This document shows positions 6,958 to 33,298 of a stretch of DNA of 49,306 nucleotides, one piece after another. The notes beneath the pieces were generated by a model. It was not told the DNA's origin and made no database searches. It saw only the letters and a list, made by a program, of their open reading frames with translations. Within the stretch, counting starts at the first letter, position 1; the number at the start of each line of letters is the position of its first letter. The stretch lies in NCBI GenBank assembly GCA_001275005.1, contig JWZX01003347.1, forward strand, positions 1-49,306, given 5' to 3'. The position numbers and the translations under genes were made by a program. Source of the stretch: Chrysochromulina tobinii. Taxonomy: Eukaryota.

Positions 6958-7660
6958 GATGGAGATCTGTCTTCAAGACTGTACACTGTTAGACTGGTAG
7001 ACTCCCTTCCCGCTCCAGCTGAGAGCCGGTTCTTTCTTGTCGATCGTCGATCTTAATTCCAAATTCGGAGTTATTATTTTTGTAGAGGTATTGCGACATG
7101 TATGAATCGCCGTGTACAACTGAGTTGGTTTGCCTTTTATTCTTCCCCGCCAATCCCTGACCATACCGGGCATTCCAAAGCCCTCGGCACCGGCCTGGTG
7201 GTCCCGTCGGGGGTCAGCGTTTGAGGCATCAACTAGTAACCGAGTAGCATCTCACCCGCCGCTCCAGACAGCCACGGTTCTCGCATGCGAGAACCCCCAA
7301 TTACTCGTCATACACTCGTCATACACACGTCATACACACGTCATACTCACGTCATACTCACGGCCATACTAACCCTCATGGAACCCCATGTTCCAATGCC
7401 CCCCCCATCGAGCTCAGCTTCACAGTTCGTTGGGCTCGGTTGGGATGATTGTATAGTGTTAACGAACACGACGTCCCCCCAATGCCTCAGAAACCCCATT
7501 GTAGTCAGCTTCCGCGCCACCGTGCGCGGCCATAGGTCATGGAAGTCCCCCTGAGCGGTAGCGAGTCCTCTCAAGTGCGGTGTGCGGACGAACGCGAGGG
7601 CATCGAAGATGGGCATATGGTATGGGGTGGCCAGTGAGATAAGAGGCCACCCGCTGCCCC

Positions 7661-7777
7661 CAGCGCGCTTCACCAGGGTGGACCTGCTTCGTCCCAACGC
7701 TCCCCCTCCCCGCCCTAACATGCCCCACCACCTGCGGCCCCCAGCGCGCTTCACCAGGGTGGACCTGCTTCGTCCCC
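7661..7777. repeat. 35-nt direct repeat x2 (82-nt spacing)
   Basis: CAGCGCGCTTCACCAGGGTGGACCTGCTTCGTCCC at 7661 and 7743, downstream of the polyprotein stop codon. Confidence 0.9.
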
Positions 7778-7854
7778 ACGCTCTCTACGCTCTCTCACCC
7801 GACCCCCCCTCTGCGCAACGCGTGCCTGAACCTCAAGTTGTGCTCCGCGTCCTT

Positions 7855-10800
7855 CTAGACCTTGTATGGTTTAGTCATTGGCTTATTCGTTGGGGCTTGG
7901 ATCCTCGGTGGCATTGGGGGCTTGGCGGCTGGCACCTTGCCCTTGCGCCTCTTGATGAGCACATACAGAGCAGAGAGCACGAGGCAGCCTCCGAGGCCGA
8001 GACCGAGGCCGAGCCCGAGAGGAAGGGCGAGCGAATTGCTAGTGTTGGGAATGTTGTCGTTGGTCGTGAATGTTGGCGCTGAAGTGACGGTGATTCCGAG
8101 GAAGGAGCTGGCGGCCGAAGTCGAGCCAAGTGTGGTGGCGAGAGCGTTCGTGACGCCGGAGGCGGTGGAGCCGACGGGAACCGCTATGACAGCTGTGATG
8201 ATCACGGAGCCGGCAGCGACTTGGACAACGACGAAGGACGGGGGGACCTGATTGGGGGGCATGGGGGTGGTGAGGGAAGGGGGAGGAGAGATGTAGGGGT
8301 TAGAAGTGACGGGCAAGGGGTGACGAGGTAGGGGGGTGGGTAGGGAAGGAGAGGGTAGATGCGGCTCTCACCCCGGCCGCCAGCGCAAACTTGATTTGGA
8401 GATTCGTCATCCTCTGCTCATTGTAGTCAGACACGCTGCCGGCCGCCACAAGCGTCAGCGTGACCGTAGCGGCGCTCCTATTTGTGACTGTGGTGCTGCA
8501 GACCGCATCAGTGTTCCTATTGCATAGACTTGTGACGCCGGACTCCATGCACGTGCTGCATGCCGTGCACGGCGTCAGGCCGGTAGAGCTCCAGGTGGAC
8601 CCCGAGTCGCAGTTGGTGGCGTTGTTCACAATCGTAAACCCGAAGAGGCCCTGTGAAGAGAGGGAAGGCATGAAGAGGGGAGAGAGGGGAGGTGTGAAAG
8701 AGGGTAGGACATGTTCGACGCTTGGAGATATGGGGGGGGGGGCATGCAGGGGGCGTGCTTAGCAGATGCAGGGGGGGTGTAGTGCATGGGAGCTCACGAG
8801 GGAAGATACCGCCCTTGGAGATACATGGGAGATGCACATAGAGATACATGCATGCTGGGAGAAGAAAGGGGGAGAGTGCAGGGGAGCTCTCAAGCGCAGA
8901 CCGCCTTCTCACCTCCTTGAAAGATAGGGCCGACGCGGCGTTTCCTTGAGAGTCGACCCAAGTGCCCGATTCCCATCCCATCACGTACCTGCGGAGAGGG
9001 GCGGGGCGGGAGGTGTGAAGAGAGGTGTGCACCGCTGGTCGAGTGCGGAAGGCAGGGTAATGATGATAGGGAGAAGAGAAGTATGAAGGGCCTTGTGGAC
9101 GGCGCGCCGTTTGGATGGCGCGTGTGGACGGGCGCTATGAAGGGAGATGTGCAGAGAGGCTGCCGCTGCCATGGCGCGGGCGCTCAAGCGGAGACAAACG
9201 TGCGACGTGAAGAGAGGTGTGAAGAGAGGTGCAGAGAGAGCGGTGTGGAGAGGAGCGGAGAGAGGAGTGGAGAGAGGAGTGGAGAGAGGAGTGGAGGGAG
9301 GTGTGGGAGAGAGGCGGGGCGGGAGGCGGAACGGGAGGTGTTGAACAGAGGCGGTAAGATCCGTGTGAATAGAGGGCGGTGTGAAGACGTACGTGGCGGG
9401 TCCCGCGAGCGGAGGCAGTGTGAACACGACCGAATACTCGTTGGAGGGCGCCGGCGTCGCATTCAGCGCCGGGTAAGTCACAAAGCTGGCCGTGGGGGCG
9501 AACATGTTAGCCAGGCCCCTGGTGGCGTTGTTCAGGACGATGATCTTCATGTCTGCCTTCGGGGTGAGTCGGGAGCTCGATTTAAACGTCGCCGTCACGA
9601 CGACTGAATTGGCCGTCAGAGCGGGTGTGAGGCGAACAAGGGTCGGCCCTTCGGAGCAGCCTGTCGTGTAGCCGAGAGCCCTCGAAGGAGGCTGAGCACT
9701 AGTTGTCCTGGCCGCGAGCTTGCGCCGACGGCCGTTCACAGTTCGGAAGCTCGGGCTCGTCACACTTGCAGCATCGGGAGCGTCCGAATCCTCGAGCTTG
9801 CGGCGTCCAGCGGAGGGTGCGGAGGGAGGGTCAACATTGAACCTGGCTTGATTTCCTGCGCCATCGATGATGGCGCCATCATCGATCGCGATCGTGTAGA
9901 CGGTGTTCGGCTTCCATTTGCGGGGCTCCGAGTCCTCGTCGGTGGGATCTGAGAGGAGGCGGACCTCGACACGAGATTCGTCCTCGTACACGATGACCTG
10001 TTTCGGATCTGGCATCGCGAGATTGTGGAACCATCATGGGGTGGGGGGGAGGGTGGGTGAGAGGGTGTGTGCGGGATATTCTCCGAGGGAGGTGGGCGGG
10101 GAACGAGGGAGATGCAGGGTGGATGGCGCACCATTCATCGCGACGGTGAATGTGTCGACCGTAGTGCCGTTGTACTTGCCAGTAAATGAGATGTTCTTGC
10201 CTGGGACTGCTTCAATGTACTCCTGTGATAGATATGGGGGAGAAATGGGGGAGATTCTGTGTGAGATTGAGATCGCATGGGACCCGTCGAGATGCAGGCG
10301 AGGTGTGATGTGAGGGGGATTGCATGCCTCCTCGTTGAAGCAGAGGACGAGCGGCTGCGTCTCGTCCACGTCCGTGGCTCCCCATTTGGCGTCCGCCTCG
10401 GGGCACTCTTGCAGAGTCGGGGGAGTGGTGTCCGGAATCGTGTTGAAGTAGTAGTACTCAGATTCAGTGGTCATGGCGGTCTCGGCCATGTCGTAGATGG
10501 CGTCCGCGGGAATCTTGAGTCGGAATTGGCCACCCGCATAGAGCGGGCAGTTCTCGTTTGGCGAGATCAGGAGCTGCGCGCCGTCCACGTCGATATCGGG
10601 GTTTGTGATCTTCTCGCCATCCTCGTCAGTCGCGATGAGGGGGAGGGCGCAGTACGGTTCCGTATCTGAGTAGGATTCCCAGCACGATCCCCATCCCTCG
10701 TCGCAGAGCTCGTCAATGCTGATCACCTTGTCGGAGTCGTCTGGGATACGGATCGCGCGGGAAAAGGTCGCCTTGATCGTCGAAGCTGTCGTGAAGGCTG

Positions 10801-13800
10801 GGGCTGCGTGGTCGATGGACTTGTTCGCACTCTCGTACCCGGCACCCCATGTCTCGTCTGGCGTCACAGCGGGAGGCGTGAAGCCAGTCAAGGTGAGCGC
10901 ACCCGAGAAATCTTCCTGCAACGCTCGGCGACCTGAGACAGTGAAGGTCGACGAGAATCCCGCGACATTGTTGCCTAGGCCGTCGTGAAAGTAGCCGGCG
11001 GGCACCGTGACGGTGTATGTGCCGGCTGAGAAGGTTACGTTTGAGAAGGCAAAGTTGGCGGTGGAAGCGCCGTCCTCGAAGAGGTTTAGCGTGATGGTGG
11101 TGGTCGGGTTGCCGCCGGCTGGCGCGACGGTCGAAGGGGAGCTTGGTGGGAAGCTCGCTGGGCAGCTGCCAGCTGAGCAGGCCTTGACGGCGCGCGCCGC
11201 GACCTGGGCAGGTACGAACGGGGGCGAGGGAGAAGTGAATGAGAGGTATGTGTGTGAGATGCGTGTGAGATGAGGGGAGGTGCGGGGAGATGCGCACCTG
11301 GCCAGTCTGGAAGGCGCCGTGGACAGTCCCTCTGAATAACGCCGACGTGTGCTCGCCTGCAAAGAAGAGTCTCCCTCCGACATTGCGACCAAAGGCGTCC
11401 GTGATGGTGTTCTTCGACGTACCTGCCATGATAGAAGACTCGGGGCAACTCAGGGGAAGGTCGGAGAACGGCACAGCCAACGGCAGCAGCGATGGGGGCG
11501 GCAGCGATGGGTTGGTCGACGCACCGACTGCGACATACGTGTACGCGCCCTTCGCAAGTGGATTGGCGCGCCAAGCCGAGCGAACGATCTGAGGCGCATC
11601 CGTCGGGACCGTGACAGAAGTCGGGAAGATCTTGACCAGATTCGCTCGGATCTGCGGGGGAGATGCCGGGGAGATGCGCGGGAGATCGTGAGCAGGTTCG
11701 TCCGGAACTACGCCCAGGCACTTGATGGGTAAGAGGTGTGCTGGAGAAGCGAGGGAGAACGCACCTGCGCCCAGACCTCGGCGTCGCTCATCCCTTCGGC
11801 CGTGTCGGCAGCCGCACCCAGTGCAAACGTCATGAGCACCGGCTTGGTCGACAGCTCATGCACGTTGAGGAAGTAGGTGAAGAGGCCGCGGTTGGTCCCC
11901 TGGGCAAGGCCATAATAGTGCGTGCCTGACGGCCACCAGTTGGTTGGAAACAAGAGTGCGATCTTGACGACGTTGCCGAAACCAAGCTGAGAGATGCCAT
12001 TTGCCGTAGCTGTCGGGAGTGCCGGGCTGAATGTGACTCTGGAGCTCGCGTCGGTGCTCTTGAGCACCCCGAGGGGGATCGTGATGATCACGTAATCAGC
12101 GTTGTACGTGCTGCTGTCCGCAGTCGTCAGCACAACTCCCGTGCTGTTGTACGTGACGGACGTGACGCGCTTGTTGTACGTGACCGAGATGGGCTGTCGG
12201 CTGGCGGACAGCACGGCGGTCACCTGCAGGGTGCTCGAGCCGTCATTTACCCGGACCGCGCCGCTCTGCAGCGCCTCGTACATCTGCTTGTACCCTTGTG
12301 CCCACACGAGCTCAGCGCCGTTAAATTTGGAATCATCATTGTAGTTCCAGGCTGACAGGTTAGTGACCGGCCCGGCGGTGTTGAACTCAGTGCTGACGGC
12401 GAGGTGGTACTGGAACAGCTCCGAATCTCGAGTCTGCCCCGAGTTCGAAAGGCCGGCGAGCGCCTGCCAAAGCGAAATGTCCGTCGTCGCCGAATTCTCC
12501 TGTGCTTGTGAGAGCAGGCTTTTGTACGGGTTGTACTGATCGTCGCTGGGTTCCGAGCAGGCCGAGTTCTGGTTTTCGGTGCAGAGGCGAAGTTCGGCCA
12601 AATTGTTTCTCGTCCGGACAAGTCCGGCACCTTCAGCCAGGCCCAGGGCCGTCGCGATCTTGGTGATCGGATGCGACTCATTGCTCCCGTGGATCCAGCT
12701 GGCGCCCATGTCCGTCGGCGCTCCCAGGGCGCCGGCGGTGTCCCAGGCCGTTCCCGCCTCGGCAGCATTCAGCGTCCATGTACGGCCACCAATGCGAGTC
12801 CCAGCTTCGAGCACCGTCAGCTCCAGGTGTCCTCCGTTTGCAGCAGTATCCCACGTGTCGATCAGAGTACGCGCCGCGGCGAGACCCGATGTGCCTGCAC
12901 CGACGACGACTACTTTGACAGTTGTGGCGACTGGCGTGGCAGACCGTGGCGACGGCGACGGCGACGGCGGTAGGGAGAGCGGCGGCAAGTGTGACGGCGA
13001 TGGTGCCTCACCTGAGCCCATGTCGCCGAGTGCGTCAGGTGGTGCCAGCGAGGGCGGGGACGACGAGGGCGACGGCGACGGCGGTTGGGAGAGCGGCGGC
13101 AAGTGTGACGGCGATGGTGCCTCACCTGAGCCCATGTCACCGAGTGCGTCAGGTGGTGCCAGCGAGGGCGGGGACGACGAGGGCGACGGCGACGGCGGTT
13201 GGGAGAGCGCCGGCGAAGGCGAAGCCAGCAGAGGCGATGGTGGGGAGGGCGTGCCCGTGTTGGTCGTGCTGGTATTGCGACTGCTCAGGCGGCTGGCGGT
13301 GCCGTGGTGGCCGTAGATGAGCAGGTTCCAGCTGCGGAGCAGCGAGTTGACGCTCGGACCGTTTGCGAGCCGCCGATCGCGGATCGCGAGCGTCCACGTG
13401 CCCACCGGGCTTTCGCCCCAGCTGCGCACGCTCGTCATCTTCCAATTGAAGCGTGGCAGGTAGAGCGAGGGCTGCCCGTTCGTGCCCGTCCAGTTCGCCG
13501 CAAGGCAGTCGTTATAGTCGCATTCGCAAGACTGAGGGTTGTCGCAAATGCCATCATTACTCGACGTGCACGTGTCGTCCTCGGCCGAGCAGCCCACGAC
13601 CGGCGGGTTGGACGTCTCGGGCCGCGGGCCGGGGGTCAGGACGGAGTGCGTGCCCGAGGGCGAGGTGAGCTCGAGCTGCAAGTCGCCGCGCGACGAGTGG
13701 TTGAGGTTGACGAAGATTTCGATCCACTCGATCGCCCACGCCTGGCTCTGTGCGCCGACCGTGACACTGGTCGACAGCGTCGAGCCATCGTGCGGGACGG

Positions 13801-16800
13801 TGAGCTGCTGCGACGAGTTCGCAATAATGCGCCGCTCAATCCCCCAGTTGGTCCACGAGAGCGCGGCGGCCACGGCCGCGCTGGCGTCGACCATGCCGAA
13901 GCCGTACTTGATGTTGTGGATGAAGCCGGCCGCGTTCGTGGTCCAGAGGGAGCTAGTGGGGTCGTTTCGGCTCGTCGTCGCCGCGAGGATCCCCGTGCAC
14001 GTCGCGCCAGCCGAGCAGCGGATTGGCTTGGAGCATGAGCGCGACCACGCCCGAGACGACGGGGCATGCATACGAAGTTCCCTGCCCCTGCTCGGCACAG
14101 CCGCCGCCTGTTGCCGCGACGTGCCAGCTGTTGCTGTGCTGAGTTGCGTCGCCGCCCGGCGCGGAGATGAAGAGCGACGAGCCCGTCACCGAGTAATACG
14201 AGTGCAAGCCGAGCTTGTCGGTGGCGCCGACGGTGATTGTGAAGCGCGAGTGCAAGTACTGCTCCATGTTGACGTCCTCACCTTGGGCGTTCTCGTTGCC
14301 TGACGACATGACGTACACGATGCCACGCCCGCTCCGCCCCTCGAGGACGCCACGCTGCAGGGTCCGTTTGGTCGCCCAGGGCAGGTGCGTGTACGCGCAT
14401 GTCATCCAGAGGTGCGTCCACGAGGCGCACTCGCCGTCCGCGTCATAGTTGGACACGTCCTGGCAGTAGGTCGAGATGACTGCTTCGCACGTGCTCAGCG
14501 GCGACGTCCAGCTGGCCCCAGGGCACTCGGAAGCGCTGCACGGGCTGGTGCCCGAGGCGGCCGTGGCCGCGAAGGGGCACCCCTGCAGCTGGCGCTGCCG
14601 GAGCTTGCGCCGCCCGGAGCTAGCGAGGGCTGTGCACGGGTCGATCCCCCACGAGTTGGATGAAATGTGGTTTCGGGCCATGTTGCCGATTAACATATTC
14701 GTGACGGTGTTGCCGTTCATTCCGCACTTGGACAGTGTCGCACCATACGCGACGCCGCGAGAGCACTGGTCGTTGCCGGCCGCGAGCGCGATCGCAGCCA
14801 CGGTAGTACCGTGGCTGCCGGTGGTGTGCGTCGGGCACGACCCCAACGCATCATACTTGCCCGAAAAATCCGGGTGCGTCTCATCGGGCCCATCGTCGAC
14901 AATGTTGATCGTCACGCCAGCACCAGTGTAGCCTGCTGCCCAGGCGGGCTGCAGGTTGATCAGAGTGTGCGCCCAGGCGTTTGTCTCGTAGTAAGGGTCG
15001 GTGACGTTCGACGCCACGCAGCCGCTGCTGTACGTCCAAACATCGTGCGGGCAGAGGACACGATCTCCAGGCAACATCGTGCTGGTCTCCATCGGACCAG
15101 TCGCACACAGCGCGCCCGCGGCGCACCACGCGTTGGCGGATTGGTCGGCCATGCAGCTGCTGCACGTGTAGAATCCGGATCTGAAGGTCAGCTGCCGTCT
15201 GTGAAGGTCGAAGAAGTTGGCGGCGGAAGCGCCGTCCTCGAAGAGTCTACGAGGATTCGACGTGATGTTGGTCGAGGTGCCGCTGGCTGCCGCGACGGTG
15301 GCGACTGGCGTGGCGGCAGTCCGCTGGAAGACAGGGGCCGAGAATCCGAACGAGATGGCAGAGATCGTCGCGGGCACGTTGGCGGTTGCAGCCGGCTGGG
15401 TTGTGGCGACGGTGGGCACGGGACGGGCCGCGGTGACGGTGAACTTACCGGACGGCGCCCAAAAGGCGCAGCCGGTGGTAGTCTGACCAGGGACCTTGGC
15501 CATGTCGGCGACGACACGAATCTGGGCCACGGTTGAGCCGACCAGACTCGTCGGGAGCACGACGTATGCCGAGCCTTCTCCCTTGTTGTTGAGCTTGACG
15601 AGGTGCTGGGATCGGACGAGGTCCGTCCAAGCGAGTCCTCCGTTGGTCGTCACTTCGAAGGTGAACTTGGCGCCCTTGACATCGTCCAGCCCGGGGCTCG
15701 CCGCCGGGTTTTTATAGCCATCGAGCTTAAAGGTGACGAGGGTGATCCCCGCGGGCACGGACGCGCCAGCGGCGGGCTGCTCGACGAGCATGGGCCCCAA
15801 GTCGACGACATTGACCTTGGTGATCGCGGCGTGCCAACTTCCATACGTGAGGTCTTGGCTGGCATTCGTGGGCTTTGCCGCCATGTAGTTGTCACGGACG
15901 GTCATGGCGAAGTGGATGTCTCGGGCCGTGAAGGGGAGCCTCTCCCCTGGCCAGAACGCCGACCCTCCGGGGACGACGATGGCCGCCGTCATGTTCGGGA
16001 AATTGCGCAGGAAGCCATGCGGCGAGGGGGAGACGGACCGAAAGAGGGGGCCCTTCCTGAAACCGATCGACATCGACTCTGCAAACTCCGCCGGGTCGAC
16101 TTGCTCCTAACTTGCTCCCAGGTGTAGGCGAGCACATCGGCCGCGTTCGGGTCGGTGCCCGAGCCTTGCAGGAAGAAGGGAGTGCTCTTAGGGATGGCAC
16201 ACGTCGCGGGCACGTTGGCGGTGGGCCGTTGGTTCGCGATCACGGTCCTGGTGCCGCACTGCTGCAGGTTCATGTCGTCGTTCAGTCGAACGTTGGCCTG
16301 GAAGTACTTCTCCTGGAACTCGTTCAAGTTGTAGACGTGGAAGTAGGGATCCGAGCGCATCTGAATGTTGTCGTCATCGCAGATCCCAGCATAGGTGACG
16401 AGCGTAGAGCCTGCGCCAATCTCCATCGCGGACGCGGCCATGAAATTGGAAGGCGAGCAGCTCGACCCTTTGCCGGACCATGTGTGAGACGTCCCGAACT
16501 GATGAGAGAACTCATGTGCGACGAAATCCACATCGTAACCATCGCCGACGGGGACTTTGCCGGCGGTGGCGCCGTTTGCCTTCGCGCTGAAGATTGGTTT
16601 CTCACCAGACCAGAACCCCGTCACCGGATCCTTGGTCCAGTGGGGAGACTGCCTGCATGGGTACATGCCGCCCATTCCTGGGAGATGCGTGGGAGATGCG
16701 TGGGAAGGTGTGGGAAGGTGCGGGGGCATGCGATGGGAGGCGCTCGAGGAGTTGGGGGGGAGATGGGGGTGAGATGTGGGGTAGGCCGCACCTGAGTCCA

Positions 16801-18250
16801 TGCCCACATGGAACATATGGCCGAGGTCGTAATCGGTCCGATTGACTCCCGTGGGGGTTGCGGTCTTCTTTGACTCAGGAGATGAGGGGTCGCCGATGAA
16901 CTCAATGAACCACTCGCCGTCGTTCATAAAGGCCTCGTTATTTCCGTTGGGCAGCCCGACTTGGTTGCTGGCTGACCATTTGGGGTAGTGAAGCAGCATA
17001 CCTTGCTTATCGATCATCACCATGTTGAGCCCCATCTCGCGACGCCAGATGCCGTTCGAGCGCGTGCAGGTGTTGACGATCGTTGCGAGCGCCGCCTCCT
17101 TGCACTTGGTCGCATCGCACGGATCAGTGTTGCCCTCGGTGTTCTCCTTGCACGGCGGGCAGCCACTATGGCCTGGCCAGCGGTACGGGATCGTGCACAT
17201 ACCGTTGTTACATACCTGAGGCAGGGTGGGAGTGTGAGGGTGGGGGCGAGCGTGAGGGCGAGCGTAAGGGCAAGGGGTGAGGATGAGTGAGGGTGGACCG
17301 AACGAAAGCGGCCGCGGCGGGTAGCGTCACGCCCCGGGGGAGGCGACCGGCGGTGCGCGCGCGCTGAGCAGCCGACGTGAGCGTCAAGGAGGGTGTTGAA
17401 TGTGAGGCTGAGATGGCAGCCAGACTGGAGCATGGCGCACCGAGGGGGTCACCATGCCGAAGACGTACTCAAAGCTGACCGCGACAGCCATCCGGAGCGT
17501 GCGAATGGTCTGATTCCCCTCAGGTGGGGGGTGTGTAACGGTCCAGATCGGATTGAAGGGCGCCGCCTGAAGCCGCCGCCCGTCGTGAACATCTCCCTCC
17601 GTTGTGAACGTCTCTGCGAGCCGGCGCCCATCGTGCACGTCTTCAGAGATCTTGGTGAACGTGCGCACCCCCGGCTCGCCCCGCTTGTTGGAGCTGTGGT
17701 AGACGGTGTACAAGTCCGTACGGCTGTGGGTGTGAGGGTCGATGTGGCACCGCCCCAGGTTCGGCTCGCCCTCGGCGCCCCCAATCCAAATTTGGCCGCG
17801 CACGCCTTGGATGGAGACGGTCAGGTCAGCGGTGTGGGCCGACCGATCGGCAGGAGGGGAGACCTCGACTCCGTGATAGGAGCGGATCCTGGGGAACTCG
17901 GCCTCGAGGCCGGCCGGCATGACGGGCGACTTGGTGAGTTTGAACGTGGCGGCACCACCGCCCAGGCAAAGAGGAAGGGAGATCTCCGAGCCCTCGACGA
18001 TCCCGAGCGCCGCTCCATCAAACACGAAGTTCTCATTGTCCTCGAGGTGCCGCCGCTTCAGCTCGGGGTGACTCAGGTGGAGCGAAACGAGCCGCACCGT
18101 GTCCGAGGGTGCCCGACGAACATACGCGTCGCCCACCTCGTTGCTCAAGTGACGCCCATGGAGCGGCGCATCGGTCACATCGGTCCAGTGGATACTCGGC
18201 CGAAGCTCTGGCAGTGCAAACGCCGCTGCGACGAGAAGAGCGAAGATCAT
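7855..18250 (-). CDS. ~2,900-aa secreted type-I membrane multi-enzyme protein: signal peptide, reprolysin-like M12B Zn-metalloprotease, kexin/furin-like S8 protease + P domain, FAD amine oxidase, Big_5/SbsA-like Ig domains, Cys-rich module, TM helix
   Basis: Manually spliced exons: 18250-17453, 17215-16792, 16677-11765 (with an 11-nt duplication at ~16100-16119 and an extra G at 13991-13994), 11651-11525, 11422-11298, 11203-10328, 10222-10132, 10008-9393, 8988-8913, 8650-8372, 8247-7855. All junction phases match and the total is 8706 nt after removing those 12 nt. N-terminus MIFALLVAAAFA; C-terminal TM LALPLGLGLGLGLGGCLVLSALYVLI followed by KRRK. Confidence 0.75.
11190..12920 (-). other. Flavin-containing amine oxidase (polyamine oxidase-like) domain of the polyprotein
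   Basis: VVVVGAGTSGLAAAR (GxGxxG), LEAGTRIGGR, DMGASWIHG, ADYVIITIPLGVLK, LGFGNVVKIALLF, W..NPLAKGAYTY, RLFFAGEHT...GTVHGAFQTG, spanning three introns. Confidence 0.92.
12956..13210 (-). repeat. 114-nt coding tandem repeat (Pro/Ser-rich linker, 2+ copies)
   Basis: PPSPSPSSSPPSLAPPDALGDMGSGEAPSPSHLPPLS duplicated nearly identically between the P domain and the oxidase. Confidence 0.9.
13310..13830 (-). other. Proprotein-convertase P domain of the polyprotein
   Basis: IEWIEIFVNLNHSSRGDLQLELTSPSGTHSVL ... WKMTSVRSWGESPVGTWTLAIRD ... SWNLLIYG, with a Cys-rich insert. Confidence 0.9.
13860..15010 (-). other. Subtilisin/kexin-like S8 serine protease domain of the polyprotein
   Basis: Catalytic Asp (IVDDG), His (HGTTVA), oxyanion Asn (SSGNE) and Ser (GTSYACPVVSG), plus SNSWG, EGRSGRG, WRDVHG and YGFGMVDA, typical of kexin/furin proprotein convertases. 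Confidence 0.92.
15850..17510 (-). other. Reprolysin-like (M12B, bacterial type) zinc metallopeptidase domain of the polyprotein
   Basis: YDLGHMF; YDVDFVAHEFSHQFGTSHT (HExxHxxGxxH); MEIGAGSTLVTYAGIC..NIQ..SDPYFH; IPKSTPFFLQGSGTD..YTWEQ; GPLFRS; MTVRDN. The prodomain lies in exon 18250-17453. Confidence 0.9.
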
Positions 18251-18867
18251 TTGACCTGCGCGAGAGGCGCAGACGTGCGCGCGTGAGGAAGTGCACGGCG
18301 CCAACCGGTGGGAGACCTGCCCAGGGCCTAGCTCGGCGCCCGACGCAGGCCCATGGGCGCGCATTACAGTCAACAACTGATGAATTGCAACTGACGCAAG
18401 TGACACGTGCGAAACTTCGGGATTTCATTTCGTCGAAAAATGTCTTGAGATCAAACCCGAGATTTTGAAAAAATCTTCCGTCAAAAGGAGACAAGAAATG
18501 GTCCCAAACCACAATCTTATCTCGACAGACTTGCCGAGGCTGGCTGCCGAGGTGAGCCAGCCGTAAACGGCTAACCCCCCAGCCCGGCAGAAGCCGAGGA
18601 ACACAAGTACAAGAAAAGTGAATTTTCAACACAATGGCACCCAGTGGACGACGAGAAAAGACAATTTCTCGTGGCCAACCAAATATTAATAACGGGCAAG
18701 ATGCATGTCGTAGAACGCAAACCACATTTCGTCGCATGCATTCCGTTGACGAACACGCAAAGAAAATACATGAACGCCAAAAAAGAGTTTGCAGAAGGTC
18801 GTGGCCGGCCCGGGGCTGCTCCCTGCCCTTGTTGGACCTGAACTTTCGCTGTCATTAGGTACTCCGC

Positions 18868-21800
18868 ATGGCCGATGCTGTCGCGGAGTATGAGATTCGG
18901 AGGCGTGCTCCCCGCATGGCCTGGAACGACGAGACGCTCAAGCTCAAGGCGGCGTCCAAGTCGGCGCGGGAAGTGGCGGCTCTCAAGGACGTCGACGGTG
19001 CCAAGCAACTACATGTACAGCTACAGCAGGTGCTACAGAGGGACCCGTTCGCCGCACTTGGTGAGCTCTCGCAGCGCCTCTTCGGAACGTTTGGCAGTCC
19101 CGAGACGCCACCGACGCCAATTCCCAATATCGAAGTCGGTGGCAGAGGAGGAGGAGGCGTCGGCGCTGGCGCGTGGCGGCCAGTGACTCACCCCAAAGGC
19201 ACACGTGAGCCCGCTCGTGAGTTCTTAGCTTGGCTACGAGCGCACAATCTCGAGCTCAACGAGATCCTCTCCGACGACTGTGGCGTTCATGCTCGCGTGG
19301 TGCCTCGCGGCGAAACCACGCACCACCCTGCTGTCGACGCCCGAAACGACGCCCGAAACGACGCCCGAAACGACGCCCGAAACGACGCCTGCGCTACCAT
19401 TGGTGACCACAAACTCCCTCGGCCCGCGGCATCCATCTCGTCACCGGCGGCATCGATCTCGTCCCCAACCACGGGGCTCGCTCCCCATCGGCTGACCCTC
19501 CCGAGACTGCCCTCTTCAGGGCCGTCGACGAGCTGCTCCATTAAGTCTCCGCCCGCCGCAGGAGAGCCCAACACGACGCTCCACCCCGGCACGCCGTCAC
19601 CGCCGCCCAGCCAGTGGTCGGGAGACAAGCCGAATGGCACGCCGCCATCACCGCCCAGCCAGTGGTCGGGAGACAAGCCGAATGGCACGCCGCCGTCACC
19701 GCCCAGCCAGTGGTCGGTCCAGAGACCAAATGGGCATTCAAATGGGCCGAGAAAGGGCGCGAGCGCACACACGGACGCGGGCCGCTCGCCTCAGGCGTCC
19801 CGCCGAGCGAACGGCTCCGAGGGGCGCATGCAAGTGCCCAGCACGGCGCCCGCAGGCTCCGAGCGCCCGCGACGCATGCAAGTGCCCAGCACGGCGCCCG
19901 AAGGCTCAGAGCGCATGCAACGCCTCGACTTCGAGACGCTCGAGCTCTTAGAGGCACGCCAGGGAGGCACGCTCGCGCTCGACTCGCGCCGAAATCCGAC
20001 CAGCTCGTCGACGGAGCGCCTGCCGTCGATGCAGCTCAGCAGCACTCCGATAGAGCGGGGGCTCCCGCTCGATGCACCTGATGAGGGACGCAATCAGATG
20101 CAATCAGAGGTCATCAGATGCAATCAGTGGTCATCAGAGCGGGGGCTCCTCGGGCAGCTCCTCGGTGCCTCGCGGCTCACGCCCGCCGCGCACTACGTCG
20201 AGGCGGCCGCGGCGATACGTGGCACAGTGGACGGCGAGCGTGCGCGGATGAGCGCCGTTTGGTCACAACTCGACCTTCGTACGCTCGCCGCGCCTCGCCG
20301 CGCATACAGCGCGCGCTCTCCTCCCCATAGTGCTCTCTCCTCCCCTCCGTGCTCGCTCCCCCGAGCGCGCGTGCCTTACCCCATCCCCCGGCGGTCGCCT
20401 GATGAGGGATACAATCCGAGCTCATCATCATATCTCATCAGTGGCAATCAGGCCTCCTTGCCCCCGGCGGTCGCGCGACTGACCGCCGATTGCTTGACTG
20501 TGCGCTGCGCCGTGCCGGCAGGCGTGGGGCTCGCCATCCTCGAGCGCCAGCTCAAGCCCAAGGATCTCGTCCAGCTCTGGGACAAGAAGGGCAAGGGCGG
20601 GGTGAGCAAGGTCGAATTTCGTCAAGGCCTCATCCACAGCCTGGGGATCAGCGCGGAGATGAGGGCGGCCGACATTCTCTTTGACCAGCTCGACGATGAC
20701 GGCGGCGGCACTCTCGACTTGGGAGAGTTGGACTTGGCGCTGCGAAAGGTACTTGACGAGGCGGCGACGCGAGAGGAGAGCGAGGCGCATGCAAGTGCTC
20801 ACCACACGGCACCTCGTGTCCGCAGGTACGCGACAAGGCGGCGAAGCTACGGGCGAGCGAGGCGCATGCAAGTGCTCACCACGGCGCCTCGTGTCCGCAG
20901 GTACGCGACAAGGCGGCGAAGCTACGGGCGAGCGAGGCGCATGCAAGTGCTCACCACGGCGCCTCGTGTCCGCAGGTACGCGACAAGGCGGCGAAGCTAC
21001 GGGCGAGCGAGGCGCATCTCGGCGCGGTGGAGGCGGCGTGGATGGCGCAATTGACGAAGCTCGAGACGATTGCCAGCGCGACCAAGAGTGCGGTGCGGGC
21101 TCTAGAGGTCGCAGCCGCGTTGGGTGTGACGGCCGCTTCCATGGAAGATGCAGTCGCGGCGTTCACACAGGGGCCATCCGAGGGCGAGAAGGAGAGAGAA
21201 GGGGCGGCGAAGGTCGGAGCGACCATGCGGCCGATGAGCGAGCGCGCGCTGTGGAGAGACGCAGCTTCACCAGCAGAAGCGGCCGCGACCGCGGCGGCCG
21301 CCTTGACGCTGGCCCTGCAGTTGCAGCAATCTCTTGCAGAGGAGGAGGCGGAGCGCGCACGGTCCTCGATCCTCGCGCGCGAGGAGGCCGAGAGGCGGCG
21401 GCGCGAGCTCGAGGTGCTCGAGGCCTTCGACCGCACGCCCGTGCTGCCGTCGCTCGAGCTGCAAGGCCGGCTCGACGCGCTCGATATGGAAGTGCACGAG
21501 CTCAGCCGCGCGCCGCCGATCGCGCCGAGCTCCAACGCCGATACGAAAGTCGGGCAGGCGCTGGCCCAGAAGAATCTCATGACGCCAAAGGAAGTGGCCA
21601 AGGCTTGGGACTCCAAGGGGCGGGGGGAAGTCGGCCGGCTCGACTTCCGACTGGGGATTAAGGCGCTTGGGGTCAAACTCGACGAGAAGGAGGTGGACAG
21701 GCTGTTTGGCAGCCTCGACGCGGACGGTACCGGCGCCCTCGACGTGGCTGAATTGCACGAAGCCCTCCGGGTGCTGCGCGAGGCTGCTATGGAGGCTGAG

Positions 21801-31873: not shown

Positions 31874-33217
31874 TCATGCGGTGCGGCACGAGTCGAAGGC
31901 TCCGATGAGAGCGCTGGCCATGCCAGCCGTCCCCATGGCCATGATGACGACCATCCGTGCGATCGCAGCGGGCGTGCGCTCGGCTGGAGGCATCAGCTTG
32001 AGGTAGAACCACGGAGGGAAGATGAAGATCATCGCGTTGTTGCACGTCCCGCCCACGAGACCCATGACGCAGAAAAAGTGTGTGCCAATTGCCCAGATCA
32101 TCAGGGCCACGCAGCCCATGGTGAGCGCTCGTATCGCCACCTGCTGTGCACTGTAGTCGGCGGCCCCTGCGTAGTGGTCCATGATCTGGCCCAGAGGGAT
32201 GTGCACGGTCACAGCAGCGAAGAGCAGATGGACGGTCACTGCGATCAGGCCAAAGGTGTGAAGAGCAGATAGACGGTCACTGCGATCAGGTGCAATCAGA
32301 TGCAATCACGTACCTGCGATCAGGCCAAAGGTGTCGATAGGGCCGCTAAAGTTGGTGAGGATGTCGGAGCCCACAGCTCCGCCGAGCGTGAGCACCGAGC
32401 CGATGGAGGATGCGAGATACATCGAGGTGCAGGCAGCAAAGGAGCCGACGATGGCCTTGCGGAATCGCGCGGGTGTCGGGTTGAGCATGGTCGCCTGCAG
32501 CGCGGGAAGAATGGCATGCCCTCCGAATCCGAAGAGAATCACACCAAACGCAGAGCCGAAGGTCGAGAAGGTCACCGCCGGAGGTGGCGCGTACGGATCG
32601 TGGGGAGCATCCGTGGCGCACAGGATCACGACGACGACGACGAGAACGACCGATGCGAGGATGGCGAGGATGGCGGTGCCCCAAACGTGGCCCGGGCGAA
32701 GGAGCATCAGCGGCGCAAGAGCCCCGGAGCCGACGAGACTAAAGAAGAGGCTCGAGCGCTGCGGGACGAGTTTGTTCAGATTGATCCCCGAAATCAAAAG
32801 GAAGAGGACGAGCACACAGAACTGGGTGAGCACCTGCGCTAAAGTGACCGCTGCTGCACCGACTGCTCCGGCCGCCTTCCACCCTATCGCAGCATACGGC
32901 GAGCGAGCAAAGTAGCTGCTCTCGCATGGTTCCTCCGACGCGTACGCATCCGCACCTTCGACAATCTTCTTACGTGGCGTAGTCAGGCTGTAGCAACGAC
33001 CTAAAATGTCAGCCGTGTAGGCGGAGAGAATCGCTGCGCACACTACCAAAACGGAGCCAGCCACGAGGCCAGACTGATTGATGGCTTTAGGAAGTGACAA
33101 GATCCCAGCACCGGCACAGTTGGCGATGATGAGCAGCGACGTTTGCACGATCCCGTTCTTCACGATCACCCGTGGAAGAACATGGTCCGCCGCTGGCAGC
33201 AACTCATCGCCCAACAT
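31874..33217 (-). CDS. Amino acid transporter (Aa_trans/AAAP, AVT1-like)
   Basis: ANCAGAGILSLPKA, SAYTADILGRC, FGFGGHAILPALQATM and MGLVGG..FIFPPWFYLKL with multiple TM segments. One intron 32313-32239 restores frame (IA|VTVH). Confidence 0.9.
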
Positions 33218-33298
33218 CAAAAGTGATGAGAGTTTCGTCGATTTTGATTCGTACGCGTGAAATCACAGGAGGAAAGTCCGTTTCATCTCGAACCCTCC

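Follow-up and report, generated by a model that had tools for sequence, protein, structure and literature searches.

The closest described relatives of the enzymes treated here are the subtilases furin and kexin (S8B; PDB 7lcu, 1p8j, 1ot5), the flavin amine oxidases maize polyamine oxidase (PAO; PDB 1b37) and LSD1 (PDB 6vyp), and reprolysin-like peptidases of the bacteria Hymenobacter and Catenovulum (Reprolysin_3/4/5). Modules resembling all three were found in one gene on the minus strand of contig JWZX01003347.1 of Chrysochromulina tobinii, whose stretch of 49,306 nucleotides (nt) is called the window here and supplies all position numbers. Chrysochromulina is a genus of Prymnesiales, Haptophyta. 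An earlier note, made from the letters of the window, had presented this gene as a single membrane-anchored chain of three enzymes. The modules followed each other in the order metzincin, immunoglobulin (Ig)-like stub, S8 protease with P domain (S8-P), linker, amine oxidase, Ig-like modules and transmembrane (TM) segment. With moderate confidence, the locus is read here as a real, transcribed and spliced mosaic gene whose frame was broken by a duplication of 11 base pairs (bp), and whose three-enzyme chain is likely not translated. The frame was broken in all available copies (the window and two further contigs, L001 and L002). The locus is probably a pseudogene of recent origin that is still expressed, or else yields no more than a truncated metalloprotease.

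Fusions of an M12B metalloprotease to an amine oxidase (proteins P0019, P0020 and P0023; locus L032) had the same metzincin C-terminal domain as the window gene (85-91% identity), the same oxidase (67-94% identity) and the same 'PRSATPVATTVKVVVVGAG' junction, and L032 also shared its Ig-like and C-terminal modules. The fusions differed from the window gene in having neither the S8-P cassette nor the Pro/Ser repeat linker, and their frame was intact across WEQVDPAEF. The bacterial reprolysin-like peptidases aligned with the window gene at HExxHxxGxxH, at the next Cys-rich segment and at the TWEQxD, PLFRS and R.FP blocks. They end in secretion tags or other domains, whereas those of haptophytes go on into Ig-like modules, oxidase and TM; unlike the bacterial copies, the metzincin of the window was frame-broken in TWEQxD.

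The S8 module shared with furin and kexin the subtilase fold with D/H/N/S residues followed by a P domain (kexin E = 2.1e-37), and differed from them by a Cys-rich insert between the His and Asn blocks and by having no Pfam S8 pro-domain upstream. No Pfam family matched as S8 pro-domain in the open reading frame (ORF) of 717 amino acids (aa), where a divergent pro-domain is possible; about 65 residues lay between the stub-S8 junction and the Asp block. The stand-alone S8-P relatives were type I membrane proteins with TM and tail, as furin is, whereas in the window locus the TM was replaced by linker and oxidase. The module is convertase-like by sequence.

The oxidase had in common with PAO and LSD1 the GxGxxG motif, the GFGN..K block and FAGEHTS. 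Identity to both was low, and the window oxidase differed in being fused to proteases and a membrane anchor. Some of its relatives carried a Cys-rich insert inside the oxidase. Maize PAO is an apoplastic source of hydrogen peroxide (H2O2).

Cell-surface oxidation of amines has been described in prymnesiophytes. PMC4478897, citing Palenik & Morel 1991, describes a membrane-bound enzyme of Prymnesium parvum by which primary amines are oxidised and ammonium appears outside the cell; the citing text proposes a copper amine oxidase gene for this activity, not a flavoenzyme. PMC6247811, which cites Palenik et al. 1988, traces the extracellular H2O2 of P. parvum to amino-acid oxidases that use exogenous organic nitrogen. 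These oxidases are likewise extracellular and release ammonium and H2O2; in the citing passages they appear as activities, with no gene assigned.

The 11-bp duplication and the reading frame

Read from the first ATG, the frame was broken at codon 600 by the duplication (lesion 1, Table 1) and ended in a stop at 15991-15993 (codon 641), contrary to the earlier note, in which no stop separated the enzymes. The duplication occurred letter for letter in L001 (a 14,090-bp contig) and in L002 (a 20,965-bp contig of another assembly, 17,421 bp examined), that is, in three of three assemblies including the window. Across the lesion site all relatives read AYTWEQVDPAEF / WEQVDPAEF. The TWEQxD motif was invariant in 9 of 9 aligned sequences (two haptophyte paralogs and seven bacterial or metagenomic peptidases), and the conserved post-catalytic region (TWEQxD, PLFRS, R.FP) was interrupted between TWEQ and VD in the window, L001 and L002. 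Because the duplication was present in all three assemblies and lay inside an invariant motif, the DNA as found does not encode three enzymes in one chain. Translation from the first ATG would give only a product of 640 residues, composed of signal peptide, metzincin catalytic domain and an out-of-frame tail of 40 residues; the conserved domain that comes next in every relative would be missing from it. The S8-oxidase-Ig-TM part is probably untranslated; no signal peptide was found after the frameshift in the conserved frame.

Seventeen public runs contained at least half of the sampled words from the 10-kb stretch: six recorded as RNA (0.59-0.65 of the words) and eleven others (0.74-0.76). 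Contigs of four runs, two of RNA (X12 and X13) and two others, were aligned to 7400-18900. The two non-RNA runs showed none of eight splice joints and covered the introns, and thus behaved as DNA. None of the four runs had an 11-nt gap at lesion 1, RNA depth in the bin of the lesion was 76 and 47, and the partly aligned contigs of X12 (two) and X13 (four) ended elsewhere; the RNA therefore most likely carries the duplication. A search for proteins with the frameshifted tail, made with the 445-aa protease ORF, returned 31 proteins, none near-identical with the tail, and was uninformative.

The insertion at 16099-16117 took the form of two direct 8-nt copies separated by 3 nt (TAG). It is conceivable that lesion 1 is the excision footprint of a mobile intron. 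No intron repeat family was found among the introns of the gene, except for a CATCTCCC-like motif common to two of them.

The earlier note had counted both lesions as small, which does not hold for the duplication. The extra base at 13995 (lesion 2) was left out at full depth in all four runs (41.1/41.1, 32.6/32.6, 216.4/216.4 and 250.5/250.5) and was absent from both other contigs. Without it the sequence read WRDVQGIL, the same as in all relatives. Lesion 2 is an error or a private variant of the window.

The locus was transcribed and spliced. The spliced frame that the earlier note had drawn from 18250 to 7855, apart from the two lesions, was borne out by 10 RNA-supported introns. Eight of these were GT-AG joints from the RNA runs, absent from the DNA runs (seven in both X12 and X13, one in X13 alone), and two came from L003, a spliced contig of 4,060 nt from a metagenome collection that extends from the linker to 7868. 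L003 confirmed six of the eight run-derived introns, retained 11652-11764, and added 10223-10327 and 8248-8371. Exon 3 (4.9 kb; 16677-11765) contained the last part of the protease, S8-P, the linker and the greater part of the oxidase. Between 11765 and 16676 there were no RNA joints and all bins had RNA depth; contigs in this interval were short and broke at 15319 and in the linker repeat. One RNA contig (14193-15319, 0 mismatches) crossed the junction from stub to S8, a second (13180-13626) ran from the P domain into the linker beyond the point at which TM-anchored paralogs diverge, and L003 led out of the linker repeat into the oxidase. Lack of expression and a chimeric join had been raised in the earlier note as possible objections; the RNA joints and L003 show transcription, and the order of modules was the same in three assemblies, with an RNA contig across the stub-S8 junction.

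Introns 2, 4, 6 and 7 were in frame and stop-free, so that ORF-based callers read them as protein (intron 2 in P0015). At 7861-7941 both DNA runs exchanged 79 tail-codon bases for 40 others, and one RNA loose end matched; an alternative cytoplasmic tail is present and expressed.

L001 was collinear with the window from 18260 to 8189 (99.74% over 10,076 nt), and L002 from 18260 to 8062 (97.2% over 5,319 nt and 99.2% over 5,161 nt), with all modules in identical order in both. L001 and L002 had a common upstream flank (100% over 780 nt), to which the window had no match beyond 18260. At 18606 the four runs all had contigs that departed from the window, and one DNA contig followed the window past both 18260 and 18606; the 5' flank is structurally variable. 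At 11071-12497, L002 had about 1.4 kb extra and then a second copy of window 8503-8062, and because of this second copy the C-terminal modules before the TM can be said to vary in copy number.

Domains were called with Pfam on the translations of nine minus-strand ORFs, five of which contained families. The signal peptide, M12B-like protease, S8-P with D/H/N/S, amine oxidase, Ig-like domains and TM anchor listed in the earlier note were all recovered, by Pfam and alignments or, for the signal peptide and the TM, from sequence and hydropathy. Reprolysin_4 (PF13583) scored 43.4 bits against a cut-off of 22 in ORF 15992-17326; Reprolysin_3 and Reprolysin_5 also exceeded their own cut-offs, and Reprolysin_2 matched too. 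Sequence search found no solved structure related to the metalloprotease. The Ig stub ran in frame into the S8 module, with the junction near YT/CSSC. Peptidase_S8 scored 105.6 bits (ORF 13956-16106), the catalytic blocks were present (D 14883-14906, H 14802-14819, N 14289-14306, S 14061-14081), and IVDDG, SHGT, SGNE and GTSYACP aligned with the matching furin blocks. P_proprotein (55.2 bits, two stretches) followed directly after the S8 catalytic domain, and the furin P domain aligned with it. A single uninterrupted ORF of 825 aa (11711-14185) held both P_proprotein and Amino_oxidase.

Amino_oxidase (PF01593) scored 140.7 bits over profile positions 2-358, and 38.2 bits over 357-436 in the next exons (ORF 10716-11855). 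The oxidase blocks were GxGxxG at 12884-12949, the Lys block GFGNVVK at 11948-11983 and FAGEHTS at 11343-11366. VVVVGAGTSG aligned with LSD1, and the Lys block GFGNVVKIALLF with the LSD1 block GFGNLNKVVLCF, the aligned Lys of which we take to be the flavin-site Lys. The nearest solved structures were LSD1 (5.6e-22) and maize PAO (2.4e-16); L-amino-acid and monoamine oxidases were far weaker. Big_5 scored 36.6 bits (cut-off 23.6) in the genomic ORF 10037-11449, had no match at E <= 0.05 in the spliced L003 ORF, and was listed (PF13205) in the precomputed annotation of relatives. A short cytoplasmic tail followed the TM down to 7858. The NCBIfam scan added nothing beyond Pfam.

The comparison set held 79 nucleotide loci, 41 of them mapped onto the gene modules, and 182 proteins, including the best 150 of 9,754 matches in a library of 1.84 billion representatives. 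The 114-bp repeat unit of the linker was confined to this locus, L001, L002 and L003 (window and 79 loci compared), and L002 had one copy more than the window. The window is GC-rich (58-70%) nuclear eukaryotic DNA; ORFs in other frames of the region reached about 170-470 aa, and the domains were collinear with homologues, so that GC content does not account for the long open frame.

Table 1. Features of the mosaic gene, in window coordinates
Feature	Position	Strand	Remarks
Whole mosaic coding region	7855..18250	-	11 exons, 2,905 codons with both lesions read through; ATG 18248-18250, stop 7855-7857
Signal-peptide-like N-terminus MIFALLVAAAFALP	18209..18250	-	Read from sequence
Intron 1	17216..17440	-	225 nt, GT-AG; X12 and X13 only
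Intron 2	16678..16791	-	114 nt, GT-AG; in frame, no stop
Zinc site HEFSHQFGTSH (HExxHxxGxxH), reprolysin-like metzincin	16484..16516	-	Aligns with bacterial HE[LIM]GHQ[FL]G..H
Lesion 1, 11-bp tandem duplication	16107..16117	-	8-nt GAGCAAGT twice with TAG between; splits TWEQxD
Stub 'ATPVAT...LFEDGASxANF...LTF'	15171..15314	-	Homologous to the Ig-like (Big_5) start of M12B-Ig paralogs
Furin/kexin-like S8 and P domain	13301..15170	-	Pfam; furin E = 1.2e-43
Lesion 2, one extra base	13995..13995	-	Breaks WRDVQGIL; only in window
Pro/Ser-rich linker	12950..13300	-	114-bp tandem repeat, 2.4 copies at 12950-13218
Flavin amine oxidase, polyamine-oxidase/LSD1 type	11204..12949	-	Pfam, PDB matches; 3 introns inside
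Introns within oxidase	11652-11764, 11423-11524 (intron 4, 102 nt), 11204-11297	-	RNA joints
Ig-like region	10438..11083	-	Starts at second LFEDGASxANF; includes Big_5 match
Intron 6	10223..10327	-	105 nt, GC-AG, in frame; removed in L003
Intron 7	10009..10131	-	123 nt, GT-AG; X13 only among runs
Intron 8	8989..9392	-	404 nt, GT-AG
Intron 9	8651..8912	-	262 nt, GT-AG
Intron 10	8248..8371	-	124 nt, GT-AG; removed in L003
TM and basic stop-transfer KRRKGK	7936..8031	-	Hydropathy scan; hydrophobic aa 2848-2875

Other long ORFs of the window encoded PARP, EF-hand/C2, ankyrin, synaptobrevin, U-box, pseudouridine synthase and amino-acid transporter proteins. The transporter ORF (Aa_trans, 32309-33262, minus strand, E = 8.4e-32) lay 14 kb off the mosaic gene.

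Alternative readings of the locus

Several observations weigh against a disabled gene. About 2,300 codons past the frameshift were open in all three copies, with no further stop or frameshift there save 13995, which is confined to the window. Exon indels between the window and L002 were only of 114 nt and 3 nt (the latter a deletion in L002), both in frame; of the intron indels, four of five were not multiples of three. The open downstream codons and the in-frame exon indels would likewise suit a gene under continued translation, or one only lately disabled, and both recombination junctions were in frame. The ratio of nonsynonymous to synonymous substitution rates (dN/dS) between the window and L002 downstream of lesion 1 was 0.69; since 28 pairwise comparisons within the S8-P family gave 0.45-0.77 (at dS 0.04-0.17), this value does not tell a young pseudogene apart from a functional gene. 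The RNA evidence at 16107-16117 was indirect, coming from gaps, contig ends and depth, not from pieces covering the site. L001, L002 and the runs were 'mixed culture' data, perhaps of the same culture line as the window, and not fully independent. Haplotype phasing was uncertain, in that 23 of the 40 RNA variants listed (out of 129) matched neither L001 nor L002 (14 matched L002 and 3 matched L001), and an intact copy that is less than 95% alike or unassembled may exist. The contigs are mosaics of alleles or paralogs, and at 15695-15786 all four runs had L002-type letters only.

A working type I membrane polyprotein of about 2,900 aa, made from an allele without the duplication or through ribosomal bypass, would agree with these open codons, in-frame junctions and in-frame indels, with the intact catalytic residues of all three enzymes and with the transcription of the locus. 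It is nevertheless unlikely: the duplication was in every assembly, and the gap that an undamaged allele would leave was in none of the four runs. Programmed frameshifting at lesion 1 was rejected, the site having no slippery heptamer (X XXY YYZ) and needing a shift of -1, whereas a Ty1-like GTT AGG would give +1. A micro-intron was rejected as well; the 11 nt are not GT-AG and fall below any known spliceosomal size, a GT..AG version of 12 nt keeps the wrong frame, and no RNA joint occurred at the site.

Separate products from internal starts, by which an S8-P-oxidase or an oxidase-Ig-TM protein would come from its own transcript and the upstream protease would be dead or separate, are quite improbable. 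L003 opens in the linker with 74 foreign bases that bring an in-frame ATG and a stop before it, and stand-alone S8-P and oxidase genes exist in relatives. However, no signal peptide is encoded by the head of L003 (MNSCFRTGADKG), an AG acceptor is missing from the genome at the join, and the 74 nt were not found in the window or the 79 loci. Because of the missing acceptor, and because the head was found nowhere, an assembly chimera at the repeat is the simpler reading; the head was accordingly set aside as a true first exon, and is probably such a chimera. At 15319 the RNA contig covering the S8 part comes to an end, as a separate transcript might, but this is the exact point of paralog divergence and hence a branch of the assembly graph, not a 5' end. 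The lack of a signal peptide past the frameshift, reported above, also speaks against internal starts.

That near-identical paralog stretches were joined in assembly and no such gene exists in the cell is very improbable, for although close paralogs are many (dS 0.04-0.17), the contigs show mosaic allele patterns and the copy number of the 114-bp repeat varies between assemblies, the order was identical in three assemblies, one exact RNA contig contained the stub-S8 junction, another extended out of the P domain to 13180 in the linker, beyond the divergence of the TM-anchored paralogs, and L003 joined the oxidase to a repeat whose unit occurs only at this locus.

Relatives and proposed mosaic origin

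The nearest named relatives of the proteins studied belonged to Chrysochromulina tobinii and to the 'Chrysochromulina_OHIO' gene set (77-84% identity). The modules occurred in relatives at 65-95% identity, in other combinations (proteins and the 41 mapped loci); with the triple order, the family had five forms or more. In the first form (P0003 to P0013 and the S8-P loci), S8-P had a Pro-rich stalk, a TM and a cytoplasmic tail of its own; no protease gene lay upstream of S8-P in the 9-10 kb flank of L012, L018, L021, L022, L025 and L038. In the second the amine oxidase stood alone, and a signal peptide of its own came immediately before ATVKVVVVGAG in the first 240 nt of six transcript-like contigs (L011, L014, L016, L019, L028 and L030; for example M..ALLV.S.DLVATVKVVVVGAG). 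Because these stand-alone transcripts start with signal peptides, the oxidase is a secreted enzyme on its own in these algae; the stand-alone oxidase DNA loci had no protease upstream. In the third form M12B led directly to the Ig-like region (P0014, P0015, P0016 and P0018; model aa ..909 joined to 2154..). In the fourth (P0019, P0020 and P0023; ..859 joined to 1652..) a single open frame led from M12B straight into the oxidase, and L032 continued from this fusion into Ig-like and C-terminal modules. P0019 (aa 620-686) and P0023 (aa 404-470) carried in an oxidase loop an insert of about 65 Pro/Cys-rich residues, ShK-like or another small disulfide domain, that the window copy lacked.

The triple order was confined to the window, L001 and L002; two of the 79 loci matched both P domain and oxidase. 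S8 or P was combined with amine oxidase in 0 of the 182 proteins, and a search for the fused form among proteins of at least 1,445 residues gave two matches, both S8 with P and without oxidase. The combination was thus as unusual as the earlier note had supposed, with no fused long protein and no description in the literature found.

In the window model 'ATPVAT' occurred at aa 863 and aa 1655, and 'LFEDGASxANF' at aa 886 and aa 2170. After the protease, the first 37 residues of the Ig region were as in the third form and then switched to S8 between YT and CSSC; the S8-P stalk passed through the Pro/Ser repeat into 'PRSATPVATT', the junction sequence of the fourth form. Judged by their sequence, the repeated motifs are scars of a mosaic origin. 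The gene would have arisen by two in-frame recombinations within a fast-evolving family of secreted or surface enzymes. In the one, an M12B-Ig gene would have contributed its 5' part, ending 37 residues into the Ig region, to a join with a kexin-like S8-P gene that had lost its own TM anchor. In the other, the S8-P part would have been joined, inside Pro/Ser/Thr-rich sequence, to the oxidase-Ig-TM part of an M12B-amine-oxidase gene.

The S8-P genes (L005, L006, L009, L018, L021 and L038) formed a large young family with uniformly high dN/dS, which points to diversifying or relaxed selection on the family as a whole. At columns that were invariant in all others, the window S8-P had 16 unique substitutions and seven paralogs had 0-11, a weak and tree-dependent excess.

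Function of the family and meaning of the locus

The modules of the family were all of secretory-pathway types, with signal peptides, many cysteines, TM anchors and furin-like and apoplastic-PAO-like enzymes. Intact members would sit on the cell surface or in the endomembrane lumen, where they would cut proteins and oxidise amines or polyamines, releasing H2O2 and ammonium or aminoaldehydes. By analogy with the surface amine oxidase activity of prymnesiophytes, the family plausibly serves to scavenge organic nitrogen; defence by H2O2 or matrix remodelling may be its role instead. Surface proteolysis coupled with amine oxidation would fit the intact M12B-amine-oxidase fusions of the relatives better than it would fit this locus.

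It is a doubtful conjecture that an undamaged form of the gene, in an allele, in a strain or before the duplication, carries or carried three enzymes on one membrane stalk, that this form and the intact fusions are the basis of prymnesiophyte surface amine oxidation, and that the duplication is perhaps a mobile-intron footprint. If true, the undamaged form would couple proteolysis and oxidative deamination on one molecule that mines organic nitrogen.

A full-text literature search found no description of the three-enzyme combination or of a protease-amine-oxidase fusion, the fusions of the relatives included; the three papers that named both Pfam families dealt, by their titles and the openings of their abstracts, with a human siRNA screen, the venom transcriptome of a cnidarian and the secretome of a fungus. 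What is new is the combination, together with the evidence of ongoing shuffling, not the enzyme families, which are known. A gene model that reads through the 11-bp duplication would annotate a protein that the cell probably does not make. The locus is a case of domain shuffling in progress, with in-frame junctions, stubs of the parent genes and a tandem repeat grown in the linker. As a functional lead, the intact two-enzyme fusions are preferable to this locus; they are gene candidates for the extracellular amine oxidation of prymnesiophytes and make an old observation testable.

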